From positions 13,971 through 77,970 of IMG/VR virus record IMGVR_UViG_3300047319_000798: a stretch of DNA of 64,000 nucleotides. The stretch is one strand, 5' to 3'. A program made the translations under genes and the position numbers. Positions within the stretch are counted from its first letter, which is position 1; each line of letters opens with the position of its first letter. Origin of the DNA: a virus. Shown here piece by piece: positions 11,493-62,194 of the stretch. The notes beneath the pieces were generated by a model. The model searched no databases and was not told the DNA's origin. It was given only the letters and a program-made list of their open reading frames with translations.

Positions 11493-12086
11493 ATGGCTGA
11501 GGTTGTCAAGCTGAATCGAAAGCTTAATGTTGTATTGCCGCCGTTCACGACTGAGAAAGGCCTGGTTTACGTCTATTCGACCCCGATTGCCCTGCCCGTG
11601 TTCCGCGAGCACTACCGCATGCTCGGACGCACGTTCACAGAGATTCAGCGGTTAGGGTATGGGCCGATTACCGGGCCGTCCTTAGCCAGCTATGTGCTCC
11701 GGGATGAGGCCAAGGCTTTCGGCGACGAGGCCCACAGTGAGATGCTAATTCAAGAGGTCAAGCGGCTATCCTTTGTCGTTTACCCGGGCGACCGGGGCTG
11801 GGCTAACATGCCGCTGGGAGAGGCGGTCAAGCGGAGTATCCTGTCGGAAGAGCAAGGGGATGAAGCGGAGAACTTTCTTGTATATTTTACTTGCGCCTCC
11901 TGGATAAAACTGCCCAGCGAGGCGATAGCGATGGAGAGCCTCCGCACACTCTGGCAAGCGCAAATTACATCCTCGACTGTTACGGAGTTTATGAGTTCCT
12001 TGCCGACATCGACAACGGAAGAGAATACTGGCGAGACAGCTGTGACCCCGTTACCGGAGAAGCCACGGTTGTCGGTTCCTGCCTAA
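11493..12086 (+). CDS. Tail assembly chaperone
   Basis: Located between the tube and tape measure genes. Confidence 0.6.
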   Translation: MAEVVKLNRKLNVVLPPFTTEKGLVYVYSTPIALPVFREHYRMLGRTFTEIQRLGYGPITGPSLASYVLRDEAKAFGDEAHSEMLIQEVKRLSFVVYPGDRGWANMPLGEAVKRSILSEEQGDEAENFLVYFTCASWIKLPSEAIAMESLRTLWQAQITSSTVTEFMSSLPTSTTEENTGETAVTPLPEKPRLSVPA

Positions 12087-12220
12087 GCTGGATTGTTGAA
12101 ATTGCTTTTAAGGAGTTCATGGGACAATTTCTGTCCAAGGACAGTAACATAGGATTCACAACCGCAACGGAATGGCGGAATAGGTATTTTCTGCAACTGT
12201 TGAAGGCGACCAATGGCTGA
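11864..12220 (+). CDS. Possible -1 frame extension of tail chaperone (G-T type)
   Basis: The -1 frame is open from 11864 to a stop overlapping the tape measure ATG; no convincing start of its own. Confidence 0.35.
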   Translation, partial: SGELSCIFYLRLLDKTAQRGDSDGEPPHTLASANYILDCYGVYEFLADIDNGREYWRDSCDPVTGEATVVGSCLSWIVEIAFKEFMGQFLSKDSNIGFTTATEWRNRYFLQLLKATNG

Positions 12221-15014
12221 CACGGCTATTCTGAGGGTCGATGTCGCTTCCACCGACTTCGACAAGTTCAAAACCTCATTTGACCAATACGCCAAGACGC
12301 TCCAGAGCACTCTGGACACTTGGGCGAAGATCACAACTGAAGTTAAGGCGGCTTCAGCGGTGATGACCAACATGGCAGCGCCGGTTGCGCGCTCCACCGC
12401 CAATCTCCAAAAATTCACGCAGCAGTTCCAAGAAACGGCGAAGCATTCCTCCGCCATCAAGACCAATGTTGAGTCAATCACCAAAGGTCTGGTGAGCTGG
12501 AAGACGGCTGTCGGTTCGACCTTGGCCCTGTTGGGGATTGGTGCTGGCGGTCTATTTGGTTTGACCTCGCTGGTCAATTCGACGGTGAGTGACCGTGCCC
12601 GGGCGTTGGCTACTGGCGTCGGCTACGGTCAATTCCGTGGGATGAATGCCGGGTCGTTCCCGGGCGCGGGCGCGGCTATGTCGGGCTGGGGCACGGCGAG
12701 TTGGGACCCAACCTCTGGCGCCTACCGGGGCGCGCAGACGCTGTTTGGCGCGGGAACTAACCAACAGCTGTCGCGTCGTGACCCGATGGCGATGATGGAT
12801 GCGCTGGACAAGGCGACCAAGTATCTTGGCCAGTTCGATGAGAAGATGCGCGGCGCTATCGCGGCCACTTCCGGCCTCAATGACCTGTTGGGGCCGGAGG
12901 CGCTGCGCACCTGGATGGCGCTTAACAATGAGGAAAAGGAGGTCAGGCGCAGGGCAATCAAAGCGGCGGGTGACGCGGCGGAGGCGGCTGAACAGGCCAA
13001 TATCAAGTGGGCAACATTCAACATCAAACTAAACTCGGCAGCCTCTATCATTCAGGACACCCTGATTAATAAACTCTCGCCGTTGGCCAAGCCGTTAGGA
13101 GATTTGAATGAAGCGCTTTTGAAGGCCTTCCAAGTTTTTATGGAAACGGAGGGCGTTCAGACAACTATCAAGAAGTTTGGTGATGAGCTTCAAAGGTGGG
13201 CCGATTGGCTTAAAACTACAGAGGGTCAAGAGAGCTTCAACCGGTTCATGGAGAATATGGGCAAGGCAGCGACGATCCTTGCTACTTTTGTCGACACTAT
13301 CGCCCGTATCATCAGATTGGTAGCCCAAAGTCCGGTTGGCCAGTTTGCTGGAAAAGTATTGGGTGCTGTACCCGGTGCGGTCCAGGGGCTGGAGAAGGAA
13401 GGTATTGGCACCCCTCATTTCGGCCCGATGACCCAGGACGATAAGGACCGCAATCTTCGATTGGGCTATGATAGATATGGGGCGAAGATTAATCCAGATG
13501 GATCCAGCGCCAATTTTCCCAATCCTGGCGATGCGCTAAAGGCCACTACAGATCCCAAGGTTCAATCGACACCATGGTACAAACAAAAGAATTTCGGCTT
13601 TGGCTGGGGTAAGTCCAACAACGACCCATCGACCCCCGGCAACGCGGCAGCGACACCGGGGCCGTCTATGGCGGCGTTCTCGGTTGGCGGTCAGAACGCG
13701 GTGCTTGGCGAGCGGATGATGCAGTGGTTTGGTCAGGAGTCAATGGCCACCCAGCAAGCCGCTGATGCCGCTGAGCGCCGCGATACCAAGCTAGAGCGGC
13801 TGTTGGTGTCGATGGAGAATTGGTTCCGGTCGAATAGCGGGAAAGCCGCTGGCGGCGGCGCGGGTGGCACTGGCGTTTACGGTTCGAGTTTTGGCGGCGC
13901 TATCGGCCCGGGCGGGCAGTTGCTAGGCGGGGGCAGCGGAGCTGGCGGAGGAGGGGGTCCGGCTGGCGCGGGCGGGTCTGGTCCACATAGCGCGTCAGGA
14001 TCAGCGGGCGGGCCGGGAGGCGGTGGCTCTGGATCATTTATCGACGCCGTGGCGAATATCGAAAGCAACAACCGCAATATCAAGCAAGGCGTAGTGGACG
14101 TCAACACCCGGAAAGGCACCCCGGCGGGCGGCTATTTCCAGATCATCGACCCAACATGGCGCCGATACGCGGCAGCGGCTGGAGTTGATGTTAACAAGTA
14201 TCCCACGGCCATGAGCGCGCCGCGTGACGTGCAAGCACAGGTCGCGGCGCAAATCCCCGCCAACCAATTCGGGCCGCGTACCCAGCGAATGCTCCATGAG
14301 CAGTTTGGGGCCTTCGACACGCGCAAGACCATTGGTCAGCTCAATGAGCAGTTTGGAGGTTCGGGCGGCGGAGGTCAGGCGGGAGCATCGGCCAACAGCA
14401 CAAGCGAGATCAGAGGCCCGGGCGGCGGCAACGCGGCGGACGCCAATGCGCTCTTGGCTCAGGTCAAGGCCACCCACCCGCACCTGAGCAATGAGCAGTG
14501 CGTGACCCTTGTGCGCGAATACACGGGTATGGGGGGCACGGTCAAGGATTGGCGCAAGGGCCAGAACGTGCTGGGCGGCAACATGAAGGTGGGTACGCCT
14601 ATCGCCACGTTCATGAGCGCCAGCGGCAAGCAGAGCGACCGCTACGATGCTGGCGGTATCGGTACCCCGGGCGCGGGCACGAGCCACGCGGCGCTATTCG
14701 GCGGCTATACACGTGATAAGGACGGCCAGATTACCGGCATCAACGTGATCGAGCAGTACGCCTACAGCGGCAGACCCGGGCAGCAGAAAGGGCCGCACAT
14801 TCAGCATTATGGCGTGGGCGGGTACGGTGAGCACGGGGCGGAGAACTATTTCGGTATCCAAGGCCCAGGCGGCGGTAAAGGGCAAAGGACGGCTTCGCTT
14901 AACGGGATGGACAACGATAATTGGCAACAGAAGCCTATTCACAATGTTCAGATCCACAACAGGACCGGTAGCGATGTGAACATTGCTGCCTCGACTGTAA
15001 TGGCAAGTTCATGA
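12213..15014 (+). CDS. Tape measure protein with lysozyme-like and NlpC/P60-like amidase domains
   Basis: 933 aa; helical N-terminus; IESNNRNI..GGYFQIIDPTW (lysozyme-like); QCVTLVRE..GTPIATF..SHAALF (Cys/His amidase). Confidence 0.75.
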   Translation: MADTAILRVDVASTDFDKFKTSFDQYAKTLQSTLDTWAKITTEVKAASAVMTNMAAPVARSTANLQKFTQQFQETAKHSSAIKTNVESITKGLVSWKTAVGSTLALLGIGAGGLFGLTSLVNSTVSDRARALATGVGYGQFRGMNAGSFPGAGAAMSGWGTASWDPTSGAYRGAQTLFGAGTNQQLSRRDPMAMMDALDKATKYLGQFDEKMRGAIAATSGLNDLLGPEALRTWMALNNEEKEVRRRAIKAAGDAAEAAEQANIKWATFNIKLNSAASIIQDTLINKLSPLAKPLGDLNEALLKAFQVFMETEGVQTTIKKFGDELQRWADWLKTTEGQESFNRFMENMGKAATILATFVDTIARIIRLVAQSPVGQFAGKVLGAVPGAVQGLEKEGIGTPHFGPMTQDDKDRNLRLGYDRYGAKINPDGSSANFPNPGDALKATTDPKVQSTPWYKQKNFGFGWGKSNNDPSTPGNAAATPGPSMAAFSVGGQNAVLGERMMQWFGQESMATQQAADAAERRDTKLERLLVSMENWFRSNSGKAAGGGAGGTGVYGSSFGGAIGPGGQLLGGGSGAGGGGGPAGAGGSGPHSASGSAGGPGGGGSGSFIDAVANIESNNRNIKQGVVDVNTRKGTPAGGYFQIIDPTWRRYAAAAGVDVNKYPTAMSAPRDVQAQVAAQIPANQFGPRTQRMLHEQFGAFDTRKTIGQLNEQFGGSGGGGQAGASANSTSEIRGPGGGNAADANALLAQVKATHPHLSNEQCVTLVREYTGMGGTVKDWRKGQNVLGGNMKVGTPIATFMSASGKQSDRYDAGGIGTPGAGTSHAALFGGYTRDKDGQITGINVIEQYAYSGRPGQQKGPHIQHYGVGGYGEHGAENYFGIQGPGGGKGQRTASLNGMDNDNWQQKPIHNVQIHNRTGSDVNIAASTVMASS

Positions 15015-30792: not shown

Positions 30793-31679
30793 TGATCGAC
30801 TTCCCGGCCAACCCAACCCTCAGCCAGGTGTTCACCGTCGCGGGTAACTCGTGGATGTGGGACGGCGTCAAGTGGGTGGCGATTGGCCCGGGGCCTTTCC
30901 TGCCGCTAGCGGGCGGCACTATGGCTCCGGGGTCGCACCTGATCCTGGCCGCTGATCCGGTTCAGCCGCTAGAGGCGACAACCAAGCAATACACCGACAC
31001 ACAGGCCCTGCGGGATAGCCTGCCGGTTGGTGGCGTCATTATCTGGGTCGCAGACAGTACTTTTGGCGGCTCGGCTAGTGCGCCGCCGTGGAACTACGTT
31101 GTGTGCAACGGGGCCTATTACGCCGCCACCGACATGCCGTTGTTGTTCAACGTGCTACAAGGCGCGTATGGATGGGACGGCACTAACTTCGCCGTGCCCA
31201 ATCTGCTCGACCAAGCCGTGGTCGGCGCTGGCGGTTCCTGGGGCATTAACGCGAAGCTCGGCGAGTACAATCACACCACGACCGCGAATGAGATGCCGGC
31301 GCACGCCCATAGCATCGCGGACCCGACGCACGCTCACAGCCTCTATGATCCTGCCCACACGCACGGCATTGGCGACCCGGGTCACAACCATGGGTTCCCC
31401 GACCCCGGCCACATTCATGGCAACGTCATGCAGGCGGCCACCGGCTATTATTCGCTGGCCGCCACGGGCGCTCTGCATACGGCGGGTCAGACTGACTTGC
31501 GCGGCACCGGGCGAACCATTCAAGCCGCTGGCGTCGGTGTCTGGACTGGCGCTGCTGGCACCAGCATGGGGGTCTATGGCGCGGGGACAGGGATTGGGAT
31601 TTATAACGCGGGCGGCGGGGCGGCGCATAACAATATACAACCCTCCACAGCTATGTACTACATCATAAGGTACGCATGA
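30789..31679 (+). CDS. Second tail-collar-domain fibre with His-rich tip
   Basis: [18 protein letters not shown] collar domain; HAH..DPGH repeats; HNNIQPS..YIIRY end. Confidence 0.75.
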
Positions 31680-31680
31680 C

Positions 31681-32046
31681 ATGGCTCTTGACAAAGACGG
31701 GCGTCCAATTCCAGCCTATATTCCACCGCCACCCAACCGCGACCCGCCACCCGACGCGATGCTGGAACAGTTTCGGATCATGGCGGAAAAGACCGACTCC
31801 GCCATACGCCAGTGCGCCGATCTGTCGCTGCGCATTGTCGAGCTGGAGAAGAATGGCGGTGATCGATTGAACGCTGGCTTGATCGATATTGGCAAACGGT
31901 TCGATACCATGATGGTGGAGCGAATCAGGGAGTTTGAGCGACGCTATGAGACGCTGACGGCTACTGTTGCCGCCTTCACTGAAGCCCCAGCCCCTCATTT
32001 CGGACCTGAGCCGCACCATCATCCGCCCGCGCCGGTGAAGCGATAG
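31681..32046 (+). CDS. Coiled-coil hypothetical protein
   Basis: 121-aa ORF closing the + strand structural operon. Confidence 0.55.
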   Translation: MALDKDGRPIPAYIPPPPNRDPPPDAMLEQFRIMAEKTDSAIRQCADLSLRIVELEKNGGDRLNAGLIDIGKRFDTMMVERIREFERRYETLTATVAAFTEAPAPHFGPEPHHHPPAPVKR

Positions 32047-32275
32047 GAATGGCGAGGAGCACCGAGGAGCATGGGGATGGGTCGGTCCTGTAGGGCTATG
32101 CAGCTGAGGTGTATCTCGACAGTCTCCGGTGCGGAGCGGGAAGGCGGACGGCGGGGGTTTGCTATCCGCCTCCCCTACGCTAGCTGAATCCGGCGGCGGG
32201 GAACCGCCTTAATACGCCCAGCCAGCGATTCAGCACCCTACTGCGGACTGGCGGCTGATTTAAGGCGATGGACCC

Positions 32276-32518
32276 CTACAGCCGCCCGCTCAGGACATCC
32301 TTGATCATCTTGTACAGCCCCACCCCGACAAAAATTGTGCCGGGCCATGACAAGATGGCATACCCGGCATCCAAGTGGAGAACATGGCGGGAGAACACCG
32401 CCATGATCAGAGCGGCTAGGCCGATTACGATGTAGTCAATCGTGCCCCACGACCGGAACGGCCCCGATAGAGCGCGCCAAGCGCCATCAAGCCAAAGCCG
32501 GAAAGGAGCATGACCCAC
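32276..32518 (-). CDS. Small membrane protein (start uncertain)
   Basis: Two hydrophobic segments; the 5' part overlaps the PEP-CTERM gene end. Confidence 0.35.
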   Translation of the reverse strand: MGHAPFRLWLDGAWRALSGPFRSWGTIDYIVIGLAALIMAVFSRHVLHLDAGYAILSWPGTIFVGVGLYKMIKDVLSGRL

Positions 32519-33249
32519 GTTGAAGCCTCCGGCACTGGCGGTCCCGATAGTGTGTTGATAATGCCGGCGTTAGTCCACGAGGTATCAAACGCCGTGATAT
32601 TGAGGTTGCCCTGGTGGTCGAACGACAGGTCCACCGCAACCGGGGCGATGATGGTTCCCAGTGCGAACGAGCCATTCACAGTGAGGAAGTCGGCGTCACT
32701 GTTGAAGCCACCTCCCGGCACGTTGAACGACGCCTCCTCAATCTGGAACGCATTGGGTAAGGCAAATCCTTCCTTCGTGTATTCAGCGAGGAAGTTGGTG
32801 AAGCTCAAGCTGCCGCCGCCGATACCCAGCTGCTTGCCAAAGTCCTGACCGGCGATGAGCGTGCCGAGCAGCGCGCCGTCGAATAGACCATTGTTCAGAT
32901 CAAGCACACGCGGCGCAATGTCCACCGATGTCGGACCGATGGTGAACGCCCCAAGCGGACCAACGCCAGTCGCTCCGCTGATGGTTGGTAAGGCCGTGCC
33001 CAGCGCCGAGATGAAGTAAACCCGGATAGGGTCATTGATGCTCTTGTTGCCAACCTCTGTGATGGTGAAGGTGTTGGCGTCGTTGAGCAGCACTGGATCG
33101 GAGCCGGTCGCGCCGGGTGACGTGACGTGGAGTGACGTTGGATCGCAGAACGTACCACCGCCCGGAAGCGGGGTGCAGTCTGTAGCCTGGGCGTAAGCCG
33201 GTGCGGCGAAGGCGAAAGCCATCACCGTAGAGAGTAAGAACTTTTTCAT
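32425..33249 (-). CDS. PEP-CTERM (PEPxxWA-type) exosortase substrate protein
   Basis: Signal peptide MKKFLLSTVMAFAFAAPAYA; C-terminal VPEASTWVMLLSGFGLMALGALYRGR (VPE motif + TM + Arg tail). Confidence 0.85.
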   Translation of the reverse strand: MKKFLLSTVMAFAFAAPAYAQATDCTPLPGGGTFCDPTSLHVTSPGATGSDPVLLNDANTFTITEVGNKSINDPIRVYFISALGTALPTISGATGVGPLGAFTIGPTSVDIAPRVLDLNNGLFDGALLGTLIAGQDFGKQLGIGGGSLSFTNFLAEYTKEGFALPNAFQIEEASFNVPGGGFNSDADFLTVNGSFALGTIIAPVAVDLSFDHQGNLNITAFDTSWTNAGIINTLSGPPVPEASTWVMLLSGFGLMALGALYRGRSGRGARLTTS

Positions 33250-33354
33250 GTTGGGTATGATCCCCGGTTAGAGAGTGGGGGGCTATTCTCCCCCCTTGGG
33301 CCAGATGCTTGCCTTTCGCGCCATGCTCGCCCGCTTGCGCGGGTCCGCATTCCT

Positions 33355-34071
33355 TTACGCACCCAGGACCGACAGGCGGTCCTTACGCGAACGCTTCCAG
33401 CCCATCACGCCCATGAGCGCGAAGCCGCTGAGCAACATCGCCCAGGTCTTGGGCTCCGGCACCGCCGACGCCTCCATCGAGACGCCCTGGACAAAGATGC
33501 TGGCACCCGGCTGAAGGGTAAGGGTGAGGCTCTCCGCCAGCCCGTAGGGGCTGTTGAGAAGGTCGCTGCCGAACCCGTTGAACGCGAACGACTGCGGCCC
33601 GGTCAGCCCACCAGAGTTGAAATCTCCGATGTCGAGGCCGGTGATGGCGAAGCCGGTCCCGTTAAGCGAATTGCTCGCGTCGGCGAAGAACGAGCCGGAC
33701 AAGTCAGACCCGAACAGCGTGGCGCCCACAGCCGCCGTAAGGTTGAACCCAAACGAAGGCCCAAGGAAGCCGTTAGCCCCGGCGATGATGCGCAGCGTCT
33801 GCACCGTGCCAGTGGTGTTGTCGATGTTGATGTTGCCCTCAGTCAAACCATTGGGGCTGGTCCCCCGGTTGACGAAGGACAGGGACACCGTCACGCCGTC
33901 GAAGTTCTGCGACGCGAGAGCCGATGTGCCGGTTCCACTGGCGGTTTCAAACCCGCCGGGGTCCGCCGCGTTCCACATGATGAGGGCCGTGTTGGCCGCC
34001 ATCGCGGGGCTGGCCACCGCCAACGCCGCAAGTCCTACGGCACCAAGCGCCGCCGCCTTAAAAATCCCCAT
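33355..34071 (-). CDS. PEP-CTERM (PEPxxWA-type) exosortase substrate protein
   Basis: GGAG RBS; signal peptide ending ASPAMA; C-terminal VPEPKTWAMLLSGFALMGVMGWKRSRK. Confidence 0.9.
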   Translation of the reverse strand: MGIFKAAALGAVGLAALAVASPAMAANTALIMWNAADPGGFETASGTGTSALASQNFDGVTVSLSFVNRGTSPNGLTEGNINIDNTTGTVQTLRIIAGANGFLGPSFGFNLTAAVGATLFGSDLSGSFFADASNSLNGTGFAITGLDIGDFNSGGLTGPQSFAFNGFGSDLLNSPYGLAESLTLTLQPGASIFVQGVSMEASAVPEPKTWAMLLSGFALMGVMGWKRSRKDRLSVLGA

Positions 34072-34302
34072 GTGTTTATCTCCATATGCCGGAAAAGGGT
34101 CCGGTCCCTGTAACAACTTCGCATGTTAACGGAATTTAATCTTCGCGTCTAGGTAAATTATGAGGATACTGTAGAGGTTTTTCAAAACAGTTTTGATACC
34201 ATCCAGATAACGAAGCCCGCCAAGGCTCCGAAACAGAGCACCATGGTGAATGCCTCACGGCCCGGGTATTTCACCGGTGCCCAGTAGGGCTCATAGTCGT
34301 TA

Positions 34303-34575
34303 TCATCCATCTTCCCTCTCCCCTAGTGTGATCAGCTGATCCGCGATAGCGTAAGCTGTATCCGTGTCTCGGGTGGACCAGTCAGTCACGGGATTGCCGC
34401 CGCGCCGCTTAATCGCCAGCGCCACCGCCAGTACAGCGTCCCGCCGCGCCTCAGATCGCTTGAGCGCCGCTCTATGAGCCGCGTCCGCGATACCGTGATC
34501 CGCATCCCCTACAATCTCCTTGTCGCTGGGCGGTATCGCGCCCAGTATGCGCTTGAACGCGGGTTCGTCATCCAT
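34303..34575 (-). CDS. Hypothetical protein
   Basis: 90 aa with GAGG RBS. Confidence 0.5.
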   Translation of the reverse strand: MDDEPAFKRILGAIPPSDKEIVGDADHGIADAAHRAALKRSEARRDAVLAVALAIKRRGGNPVTDWSTRDTDTAYAIADQLITLGEREDG

Positions 34576-34591
34576 TAGCTATCCTCAAACG

Positions 34592-34621
34592 AAAAAGGGC
34601 GGAGGCCCGATGCCTCCGCCC
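34592..34621 (-). terminator. Rho-independent terminator
   Basis: GGGCGGAGGC-ATCGG-GCCTCCGCCC-TTTTT on the minus strand. Confidence 0.8.
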
Positions 34622-34648
34622 TGTAACTAACCCGGCGTGTAATTAAAG

Positions 34649-35278
34649 TCAAGTGCCGAAAAGGCCGTCAAGGCTGTCGTCCTTGATGGCGAAGCCCGCA
34701 GCCGGGGCCTTGGCCCGGGGAAGCGGCTTGGCGCTCCAGCCAGTGGCCGTGGCGTGACCGGCCAGAGGCCGCTCGCTGTGCTTGGGCGGGGCTTCGACCG
34801 CGAACCGGCCCGCGCACTCCGGGCCTAGACCCGATGCGATGCTGCCCGGCACCGTGAGCTTGCGGCCGCAGCGGGCGCAGGTGCCCTCGTGCCAGTACTC
34901 AACCTGGTTGAGGGCGCTGGCGGTGGCCGTGCGCTGGGCGATAGGGGCCAGAGCGGCGCTGAGGAACCAGTTGATAGCCTTGTAGGACGGGGCCATATCG
35001 CTGATTTTGGACTTGGCCGTGCGGCGGAACGAATACATGCCGCTATTCGCCCGGGTGATGATGCCCGTGTAGGCGAAATTGGAGTTGTTGTCGGGGCCGG
35101 TCATGGTCGACACGAACCAGAGTTCCTTGCGCGCGCCGTTTTCTTCCTCGTCAACCTGGCTGACGCGATAGGTAAACCGGGTGCCGGTCTTCTTGGAGAC
35201 TAGGGTGAAGGTGGCGTTGCCGGCCAACACTAGAACAGGGATGCGGTCGGCGTCGTTGATTTGGGCCTTGGTGATCAT
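34649..35278 (-). CDS. DUF6011-type zinc-finger early protein
   Basis: CARCGRKLTVPGSIASGLGPEC motif; start MITKAQ follows an AGGA RBS and promoter. Confidence 0.7.
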   Translation of the reverse strand: MITKAQINDADRIPVLVLAGNATFTLVSKKTGTRFTYRVSQVDEEENGARKELWFVSTMTGPDNNSNFAYTGIITRANSGMYSFRRTAKSKISDMAPSYKAINWFLSAALAPIAQRTATASALNQVEYWHEGTCARCGRKLTVPGSIASGLGPECAGRFAVEAPPKHSERPLAGHATATGWSAKPLPRAKAPAAGFAIKDDSLDGLFGT

Positions 35279-35298
35279 CTGAGAGGTTCCTGGCGGGG

Positions 35299-35356
35299 GG
35301 AGCCCAATTGCTCCACCCCACAACAGTTACATAAGCGCTTCAGTTACAGAAGTCAA
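35299..35356 (-). promoter_or_regulatory. Sigma70-like promoter + AAUUGG leader hairpin (copy 1)
   Basis: TTGACT(35356-35351)-N17-TATGTA; GGAGC-AATTGG-GCTCC at 35299-35314. Confidence 0.8.
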
Positions 35357-35362
35357 GCCCAG

Positions 35363-35527
35363 TTAGAGATTATTTTTGCGGGCGTATTCCTTGGCCGCTT
35401 TAACGTCTGGGAATTGGCGGTCTATCCCTTCAATTTCTGCCCAGCTGCCGATTGCGGCTGACCGATATTCGATGATCGCCCGCTTGGCGGGGGTAAAGGC
35501 TACGACTTCGCAAACGCCGTAATTCAT
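35363..35527 (-). CDS. 54-aa early protein
   Basis: Manual translation MNYGVCEVVAFTPAKRAIIEYRSAAIGSWAEIEGIDRQFPDVKAAKEYARKNNL*; directly downstream of promoter copy 2. Confidence 0.55.
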   Translation of the reverse strand: MNYGVCEVVAFTPAKRAIIEYRSAAIGSWAEIEGIDRQFPDVKAAKEYARKNNL

Positions 35528-61877: not shown

Positions 61878-62194
61878 TGGACGAGCCCAAGGGTGAGCTG
61901 GCGCGTTATGCCTTTGGCTATTCCGACAAGAAGCCGGGATGGTTATTCTGGGTCATTCACGCCGCCATGGTAGCATTCGTGCTAGGCATGCTCTGGTCAG
62001 GCAAAGCTTACGCGCACTGTTATTCACGTTGGTATTATCCAACGCCCCAGCATTGCCGTCTATCCAATGCTCCAACACCCATACTCCATCGGGCCGAAGA
62101 GCAGAGCCATGACTGGTATGTTGAGTTTGTATTACCAGAAGACGAGCGCATCAAGGCTATTGACCAACTCAGGGTACAGTTGAATAAAGATTAA
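61874..62194 (+). CDS. Membrane-anchored hypothetical protein
   Basis: One TM segment; C..WYYP..QHC. Confidence 0.5.
   Translation: MMDEPKGELARYAFGYSDKKPGWLFWVIHAAMVAFVLGMLWSGKAYAHCYSRWYYPTPQHCRLSNAPTPILHRAEEQSHDWYVEFVLPEDERIKAIDQLRVQLNKD

Follow-up and report, generated by a model that had tools for sequence, protein, structure and literature searches.

A tandem pair of phage-borne PEP-CTERM genes in a soil myovirus: candidate cargo for a host exosortase

Introduction

Protein sorting by the PEP-CTERM/exosortase system is common in bacteria of soils, sediments and biofilms and is still poorly understood. The exosortases (EpsH, Xrt) and their PEP-CTERM proteins are known from bacteria (Haft et al. 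2006, PMC1569441; PMC9850573; PMC12188702), and a sigma-54 motif has been described for proteobacterial PEP-CTERM genes (PMC1569441). Floc formation in Zoogloea needs a PEP-CTERM protein, according to the account of Gao et al. 2018 given in PMC12642866, and an RpoN-dependent PEP-CTERM gene of Aquincola tertiaricarbonis has likewise been linked to floc formation (PMC9850573). Among viruses, the lytic phage T5 produces a lipoprotein, Llp, that blocks the phage's own receptor FhuA (PMC9586334). The subject of the present analysis is a tandem pair of PEP-CTERM genes, here termed A and B, in the IMG/VR virus record IMGVR_UViG_3300047319_000798. Positions 13,971 to 77,970 of that record, a stretch of 64,000 nucleotides, are referred to as the window, and coordinates are those of the window unless stated otherwise.

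In the literature searched, no paper dealt with PEP-CTERM genes of tailed phages; the sole virus-related mention was of a mobile element of Dehalococcoides with a PEP-CTERM domain. This agrees with an earlier interpretation of the window made from its letters alone (the sequence-only reading), in which such genes were not known as a described phage function. As judged from the comparisons below, A and B appear to be real, functional phage genes that probably form a two-gene accessory cassette (moron).

The gene pair and its sorting signals

The pair is laid out as follows.

33355-34071, minus strand: gene A, encoding a predicted secreted PEP-CTERM protein of 238 residues with a signal peptide (residues 1-25), a jelly-roll beta-sandwich (about residues 26-201) and a sorting signal (residues 204-238, nucleotides 33462-33358)
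33250-33354, minus strand: intergenic spacer between A and B, 105 bases with two short GC hairpins and without a T-run
32425-33249, minus strand: gene B, encoding a predicted secreted PEP-CTERM protein of 274 residues with a signal peptide (residues 1-20), a cysteine pair (C25/C35), a beta-sandwich and a sorting signal (residues 239-274, nucleotides 32535-32428)

The start of A was assigned to the ATG at 34071, as homologues open with the same MG.FKAAALGAVGL and a GGAGA Shine-Dalgarno sequence is found at 34083-34079. By inspection, both proteins carry Sec-type signal peptides with a hydrophobic core and AxA sites (AMA/A and AYA/Q), ending in ...ASPAMA/ANT in A and ...AAPAYA/QAT in B, where the slash marks the presumed cleavage site. 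The combined share of glycine, serine, threonine, asparagine and alanine is 53% in A and 47% in B. The three-part sorting signals read VPEPKTWAMLLSGFALMGVMGW-KRSRKDR in A and VPEASTWVMLLSGFGLMALGALY-RGRSGRGAR in B. Thus, the C-terminus of A, VPEP-KTWAMLLSGFALMGVMGW-KRSRKDR, consists of a PEP motif, a transmembrane helix and a basic cluster; that of B, VPEA-STWVMLLSGFGLMALGALY-RGRSGRGAR, has a PEA variant that is also present in a chromosomal neighbour of an XrtV exosortase. The literal motif is PEPKTWA (PEPxxWA) in A and PEAxxWV in B.

The Pfam model PF07589 scores 26.0 bits for A and 24.8 bits for B, both above its gathering score of 20.7, while TIGR02595 lists A (16.9 bits, cut-off 16) and not B. 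The top NCBIfam model for both proteins is PEPxxWA-CTERM (NF035944), with 31.8 bits for A and 22.1 bits for B against a curated cut-off of 35. Hence, the signals are termed PEPxxWA-like here, and the proteins are not filed as PEPxxWA-CTERM members. Neither do they reach the cut-off of 50 for the FxDxF PEP-CTERM family (NF038126), where A scores 31.5 bits (residues 109-227) and B 19.5 bits. In the whole record of 77,970 bases, A and B are the sole open reading frames (ORFs) of the PEP-CTERM type. Their matches go beyond chance: the two genes lie side by side, and of 58 unique A homologues from viruses 57 retain the motif. Two adjacent genes, each with a signal peptide, a beta domain rich in glycine, threonine, serine and asparagine, and a sorting signal had been proposed by the sequence-only reading, and the Pfam scores, the sequence itself and the structural models all bear this out.

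The carrier phage and its assembly

The record is estimated to be 100% complete and represents an uncultured myovirus. To the left of the pair, plus-strand genes encode a major-head-like protein, the tail sheath, baseplate parts and a collagen-like tail-fibre series that ends at 32046. To the right, minus-strand genes encode DNA polymerase, thymidylate synthase and other proteins of replication and nucleotide metabolism. The pair therefore lies at the convergent junction of a late and an early block, flanked in this complete myovirus by the tail-fibre module on one side and the replication module on the other, and is phage-borne, as had been claimed at the outset. Equally, the sequence-only reading had noted that the window holds no exosortase; a search with PF09721 gave no match in the window or in the complete record. 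No tyrosine integrase or resolvase-type recombinase was found in the complete record, and the cultured phages of INPHARED gave no DNA or protein match to the region, to A or to B.

The stretch occurs in 24 rhizosphere or soil sequencing runs, all from 2023-2024, which may derive from one campaign. In four runs besides the possible source, contigs span the passage from the tail-fibre side to B, from B to A, and from A to its upstream genes at 99% identity or more. These bridging contigs show just two single-nucleotide polymorphisms (33184 and 34194), both synonymous by codon reading, the second of which falls within a 42-residue ORF described below. A chimeric assembly, which the sequence-only reading had named as one way in which it could fail, is refuted by contigs from four other runs that bridge every junction.

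Families A and B are found almost only in phages

When clustered at 90% identity, family A comprises more than 154 clusters and family B about 50, nearly all of them metagenomic. Of 56 listed A clusters whose longest contig reaches at least 30 kilobases (kb), 54 fall between 30 and 89 kb, which is the size of phage genomes. Two homologues of A (P0054 and P0087) lie on contigs of more than 100 kb. A scan of IMG/VR with the single A protein gave no match; the alignment-based scan returned 141 stretches, and a profile search placed a full-length A gene at about 60 IMG/VR loci. At 15 or more of these loci a second PEP-CTERM gene directly follows A, and at seven or more (L001, L002/L011, L008, L012, L013, L029 and L038) it is a homologue of B. 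This recurrence in many phages answers the question, left to viral databases by the earlier interpretation, whether the pair is conserved in relatives, and it speaks against the one-off, decaying host capture that would have undone that interpretation.

The carriers of A fall into four different genomic settings, and their A genes adjoin those for a helicase, an Erf-type annealing protein, an exonuclease, a terminase, a portal protein, an endolysin or a DNA ejection protein. Three carriers that were checked are 98-100% complete, one of them with terminal repeats. Neither an integrase nor a resolvase was found in four records of at least 98% completeness, including that of the window's phage, and PF09721 detected no exosortase in five other carrier phages.

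The ESM Atlas clusters nearest to A are 82% and 90% viral. On the bacterial side, where the best seven candidates per genome were scored, full-length A was not found in 401 alphaproteobacterial genomes chosen across the class or in 400 genomes across the order of Bradyrhizobium; in both sets only the tag was matched. A pattern scan of 185,579 species, weak evidence when taken alone, returned only tag matches or full-length matches of 27-29% identity among the matches listed. Taken together, these sequence comparisons indicate that families A and B are found almost only in phages.

A B homologue (P0004) on L038, an IMG/VR contig of 58,619 bases, is annotated at NCBI as a protein of a Casimicrobiaceae metagenome-assembled genome (MAG). 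The longest contig of P0004 is also exactly 58,619 bases long, so the MAG has probably taken in a phage contig during binning, and the Casimicrobiaceae label is not a safe host call.

Mobility of the cassette

In a tree of 57 A proteins, labels of genomic context, crude as they are, change 35 times, compared with a mean of 37.0 for shuffled labels. The A protein of the window clusters (support 97/92) with A proteins of phages that have other layouts; the nearest of these, from L005, is about 66-67% identical. Conversely, L021, L023 and L027 share the tail fibres of the window's phage, yet their A genes belong to another major branch (38-39% identity). The two genes also combine in different ways: L038 joins a distant A (33%) to a close B (66%), while L005 joins its close A to a distant second gene (30%). 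Judging by these combinations, A and B are reshuffled between phages. Moreover, the GC content at third codon positions (GC3) is 0.84 in A, about three standard deviations above the value of 0.69 (standard deviation 0.05) averaged over 15 other genes of this phage; B is ordinary at 0.71. The two genes may thus have entered the phage at different times.

Where a moron is considered, the observations comprise a candidate promoter and a putative terminator hairpin (both described below), a position where the tail-fibre module meets the replication module, the context-independent tree of A and its GC3. The cassette may be traded between unrelated phages.

Conservation of the tag and likely hosts

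The motif that is kept in nearly all viral A proteins has the form PEPxxW[A/V]. Across 84 sequences P205 is invariant, and E206, P207, T209 and W210 are conserved in 90% or more. From this conservation, it is concluded that the sorting tag is under selection.

Among the matches listed, the most similar bacterial tags are mostly alphaproteobacterial and come from Bradyrhizobium, Roseiarcus, Sphingomonas, Erythrobacter and many soil MAGs. Together with the best NCBIfam model, these nearest tags agree with the alphaproteobacterial PEPxxWA flavour that the sequence-only reading had ascribed to the signals. An exosortase is present in four of the five genomes with the most similar signals. Three of these enzymes were typed, and all are XrtV-like, one scoring above the curated cut-off and two just below it; exopolysaccharide genes adjoin the exosortase in the two loci whose flanks were scanned. 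Particularly close is a contig of Bradyrhizobium lablabi (L178), on which two tandem PEPxxWA-like genes (225 and 201 residues) lie beside an XrtV exosortase locus (L162), just downstream of the XrtV-type exosortase, an EpsD-like isomerase and a phosphatase-like gene. Their homology to A and B is limited to the tags. This arrangement may be viewed as a chromosomal counterpart of the tandem layout in the phage, with the tags alone being homologous. Based on these similarities, A and B would most likely be served by an exosortase of the XrtV type from an alphaproteobacterium living in soil.

Structural models of A and B

AlphaFold models of A and B were built on 84 and 44 homologues, respectively, and both are of high confidence. 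The model of A (predicted local distance difference test score, pLDDT, 87) is a 12-strand jelly-roll sandwich with an N-terminal helix and a C-terminal helix (207-237). That of B (pLDDT 89) is a beta-sandwich with two short helices, an N-terminal helix and a C-terminal helix (242-268); in the ESM Atlas, B is poorly modelled. Mean column identity is 59% in the A family and 41% in the B family, and numerous positions do not vary at all, which points to selection on the outer domains. The cysteine pair near the N-terminus of B is kept among closer homologues, which fits an exported protein.

With VIA-align, the best structural match of A is Bdellovibrio Bd1399 (Z 8.7, root-mean-square deviation 4.9, 137 residues aligned), followed by the carbohydrate-binding module (CBM) family CBM61 (Z 8.3, root-mean-square deviation 3.0, 118 aligned) and the Bacteroides surface glycan-binding protein SGBP-B (Z 8.1). 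CBM4 and CBM16 modules also appear, the whole range extending from Z 8.7 to 7. Foldseek returned E-values from 2.5e-07 down, with template modelling (TM) scores of at most 0.33. These scores are middling, as Z values of about 8 are common among unrelated sandwiches; a lectin-like (CBM-like) fold of A is therefore a lead rather than a finding. For B, no informative structural match was obtained. The outer domain of A was not found inside larger proteins (418-2000 residues), which is weak evidence.

Two further relationships were considered and set aside. A relationship of A and B as paralogues is unsupported, since their profile alignment is driven by its two ends, signal peptide and tag, with a poor fit in between. 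Mimicry of the phage's own receptor-binding proteins was rejected at the sequence level, A and B being unlike 13 tail-fibre and baseplate proteins.

Transcription signals and neighbouring genes

The following features, all on the minus strand, surround the pair.

34182-34310, minus strand: small ORF of 42 residues with one hydrophobic helix, upstream of A and adjoining the promoter candidate
34157-34185, minus strand: sigma-70-like promoter candidate TTGAAA-N17-CATAAT, 5' of A, matching at 10 of 12 positions
34072-34156, minus strand: leader of A, 85 bases, in which a small hairpin (CCGGA 34104-34100 / TCCGG 34093-34089) precedes the Shine-Dalgarno sequence GGAGA
32330-32369, minus strand: terminator-like hairpin TGCCGGG...CCCGGCA followed by ACAATTTTT (T-run), directly 3' of B
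32276-32404, minus strand: small hydrophobic ORF of 42 residues, 3' of B and overlapping the terminator-like hairpin; a doubtful gene

The promoter candidate is the sole promoter-like site within 31500-35500, and a single match does not exceed the chance level (mean of 1.3 in shuffled sequences). The AATYGG hairpin motif that marks the other early promoters of the phage is not found at the promoter or in the leader of A. A sigma-54 promoter, as in chromosomal PEP-CTERM genes, was rejected, no such motif being present near the pair. Folding of the leader is no more stable than that of shuffled sequences (z -0.04), and the same applies to the spacer between A and B (z -0.77, not significant). 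The region 32300-32424 folds better than shuffled sequences (z -2.70), although a simple terminator scan missed its hairpin. Probably, A and B are co-transcribed. The ORF at 34182-34310 possibly belongs to the same early transcription unit as A. With no terminator between A and the upstream genes at 34303-34575 and 34182-34310, read-through from an early promoter near 34650 is possible. No Rfam family matched within 31900-34700.

Further upstream, 34596-34660 (minus strand) contains TTGACT-N17-TAGTTA, followed by a strong hairpin whose loop reads ATCGG and by a T-run; this element could double as the terminator of gene 34649-35323 and as the leader hairpin of the next unit. Small hairpins upstream of A genes also occur in other phages, at the same place as 34104-34089 in the window. 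In phages of different layouts (L002, L005, L007, L009, L010, L012, L014, L015 and L016), a conserved element, approximately GAGCCGACTCCATCGGCCA with a 5-bp stem (GCCGA/TCGGC), precedes the Shine-Dalgarno sequence by lying 20-60 bases 5' of A, while other loci, the window included, have a different small hairpin there. Lacking a T-run, this leader element is not a terminator; it may be a stabiliser of the mRNA 5' end or a regulatory site.

The minus-strand ORF at 34303-34575 encodes 90 residues without a PHROG match and shares 72-80% identity with ORFs in the vicinity of PEP-CTERM genes of otherwise divergent phages (L040, L045, L047, L052, L053, L066 and L068), in which these ORFs run opposite to the A gene. 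Several other phages carry a gene for a small secreted protein with the motif C-x-R-x3-W-x-YPYPQ-x-C directly 5' of A (L002 8795-9070, L037 9308-9622); the homologue in the window lies about 28 kb from A, at 61970-62140 on the plus strand. Similarly, an endolysin homologue and a holin-like membrane protein of families that adjoin the A gene in several other phages are encoded at positions 11553-12319 of the genome, before the window. As these genes lie about 35 kb from the pair in the window's phage, an accessory role in lysis was rejected.

Proposed function and alternatives

According to the proposed mechanism, A and B would be exported by the Sec pathway and lose their signal peptides, whereupon the C-terminal helix of the PEP-CTERM signal would hold each protein for a time in the inner membrane. 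The host exosortase would then recognise the signal and cleave at the PEP motif, and the beta-sandwich domain would be passed to the outer surface or into the exopolysaccharide layer. The location at the end of the early/replication block, the sigma-70-like candidate and the carriers without integrase suggest that the proteins are made by the host RNA polymerase in lytic infection. On balance, exosortase-dependent display of A and B in general is regarded as moderately probable.

The purpose of such display can be proposed more tentatively. The surface of the infected cell would be altered, and A may attach to a glycan receptor or to the slime layer and so cover it, which would shut out later phages and stop progeny from sticking to debris, an effect that lytic T5 obtains through Llp. 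Receptor masking is favoured by the analogy to Llp, by the lectin-like fold of A and by the position beside fibre genes in the window's phage, and it is put forward as one possibility that may well prove wrong. Just as tentative is the wider picture, in which soil phages carry virus-specific exosortase cargo, use the host enzyme during lytic infection to place lectin-like proteins on infected cells or in their slime layer, thereby mask glycan receptors and exclude competitors, and trade the cassette freely even when unrelated.

Several points weigh against these proposals. Both proteins fall short of the curated PEPxxWA-CTERM cut-off, the promoter count is at chance level, and no RNA run was among the listed runs containing the stretch. 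The fold matches of A are middling, B lacks an informative one, and neither protein resembles the tail fibres of its own phage. Elsewhere, A adjoins terminase, helicase or recombination genes and not fibres, so that its position lends little weight to a receptor role. The host exosortase was deduced from lineages with similar signals. To our knowledge, not even in bacteria have the final destination and the acceptor of exosortase cargo been determined.

Conceivably, the tag is a plain membrane anchor and no exosortase is involved. A and B would then stay in the inner membrane facing the periplasm, where they could act like inner-membrane superinfection-exclusion proteins, for example by blocking DNA entry, or fulfil another periplasmic task. 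A signal peptide and a C-terminal helix suffice for this topology, the phage lacks an exosortase, and the sub-threshold PEPxxWA scores fit as well. Yet, an anchor needs no PEP, and the conservation of this motif, with P205, E206, P207 and W210 invariant or nearly so in the A family, argues against a mere membrane anchor. The close match of the signals to those of chromosomal genes beside XrtV points in the same direction, and the anchor is therefore considered unlikely.

The main alternative to receptor masking is aggregation, in which A and B are processed by the exosortase and glue cells to each other or into slime, holding phages near fresh hosts. Chromosomal PEP-CTERM proteins are required for flocs in Zoogloea and Aquincola (PMC9850573; for the former, as cited in PMC12642866), the predicted fold of A resembles CBMs, and the phage stems from rhizosphere or soil samples. 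However, the carriers look virulent, given the lack of integrases and resolvases in the four near-complete records, which would leave one latent period to aggregate. A similarity to floc proteins of the PepA type is also missing (floc_PepA, 12.6 bits against a cut-off of 80). Flocculation is accordingly rated slightly less likely again than the anchor.

It is quite improbable that A and B are decoy substrates that flood the exosortase and block display of the host's own PEP-CTERM proteins, loosening the matrix or removing a defence before lysis. Two tandem substrates with a strong Shine-Dalgarno sequence, with signals that closely mimic chromosomal ones and without an enzyme would suit a decoy. 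For this purpose the tag alone would do; that the outer domains of A and B are phage-specific, well folded and kept in evolution argues against a mere decoy. Genomes with this system already encode a median of eight substrates (PMC1569441), so saturation by two more is unlikely.

Finally, an accident in the form of a host fragment, an assembly chimera or a useless, decaying passenger, at which the deviating GC3 of A might hint as a sign of foreign origin, is refuted as far as sequence data reach by junctions bridged in independent runs, intact reading frames, families kept in dozens of complete phage genomes and the lack of a chromosomal full-length homologue in the searches above, and it hardly merits further consideration.

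Significance and comparison with known systems

If phages do rely on an exosortase, this would represent a new viral route to rewriting the surfaces of infected cells in soil and rhizosphere communities; should the planting of lectin-like proteins prove true, phage-directed surface remodelling by an undescribed and widespread route would be at hand. In the former case, A and B, as small and well-folded cargo, would be handy probes of how exosortases handle their substrates, and the tag could help to predict exosortase-positive hosts of uncultured carrier phages. Both families are large enough for comparative work.

Of the described systems, XrtV/PEPxxWA-CTERM (NF035943, NF035944) comes closest. 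As in that system, A and B combine a signal peptide and a diverse outer domain, rich in glycine, serine, threonine and asparagine and hardly homologous to known proteins, with PEP, helix and basic cluster, and their signals are nearly the same as those of the genes beside XrtV in Bradyrhizobium lablabi. In contrast to bacterial PEP-CTERM proteins, they are encoded by a phage without an exosortase in the same genome, the families of their outer domains are almost confined to viral records, and their promoter candidate is sigma-70-like, without a sigma-54 motif. With PepA of Zoogloea resiniphila and the Aquincola tertiaricarbonis gene, which are linked to exopolysaccharide and aggregation, A and B share the character of small secreted PEP-CTERM proteins. 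They differ from the PepA type in the lack of a sequence relationship, in being phage-encoded and in having no RpoN-type promoter.

The comparison with T5 Llp, finally, is a working analogy and not one of homology. A and B carry an exosortase tag instead of a lipobox, share neither sequence nor fold similarity with Llp, and in many phages A is distant from the fibres. Like Llp, they would be envelope proteins of a virulent phage that bear a signal peptide and are made early, and in the window's phage as well as in several relatives they adjoin tail-fibre genes.

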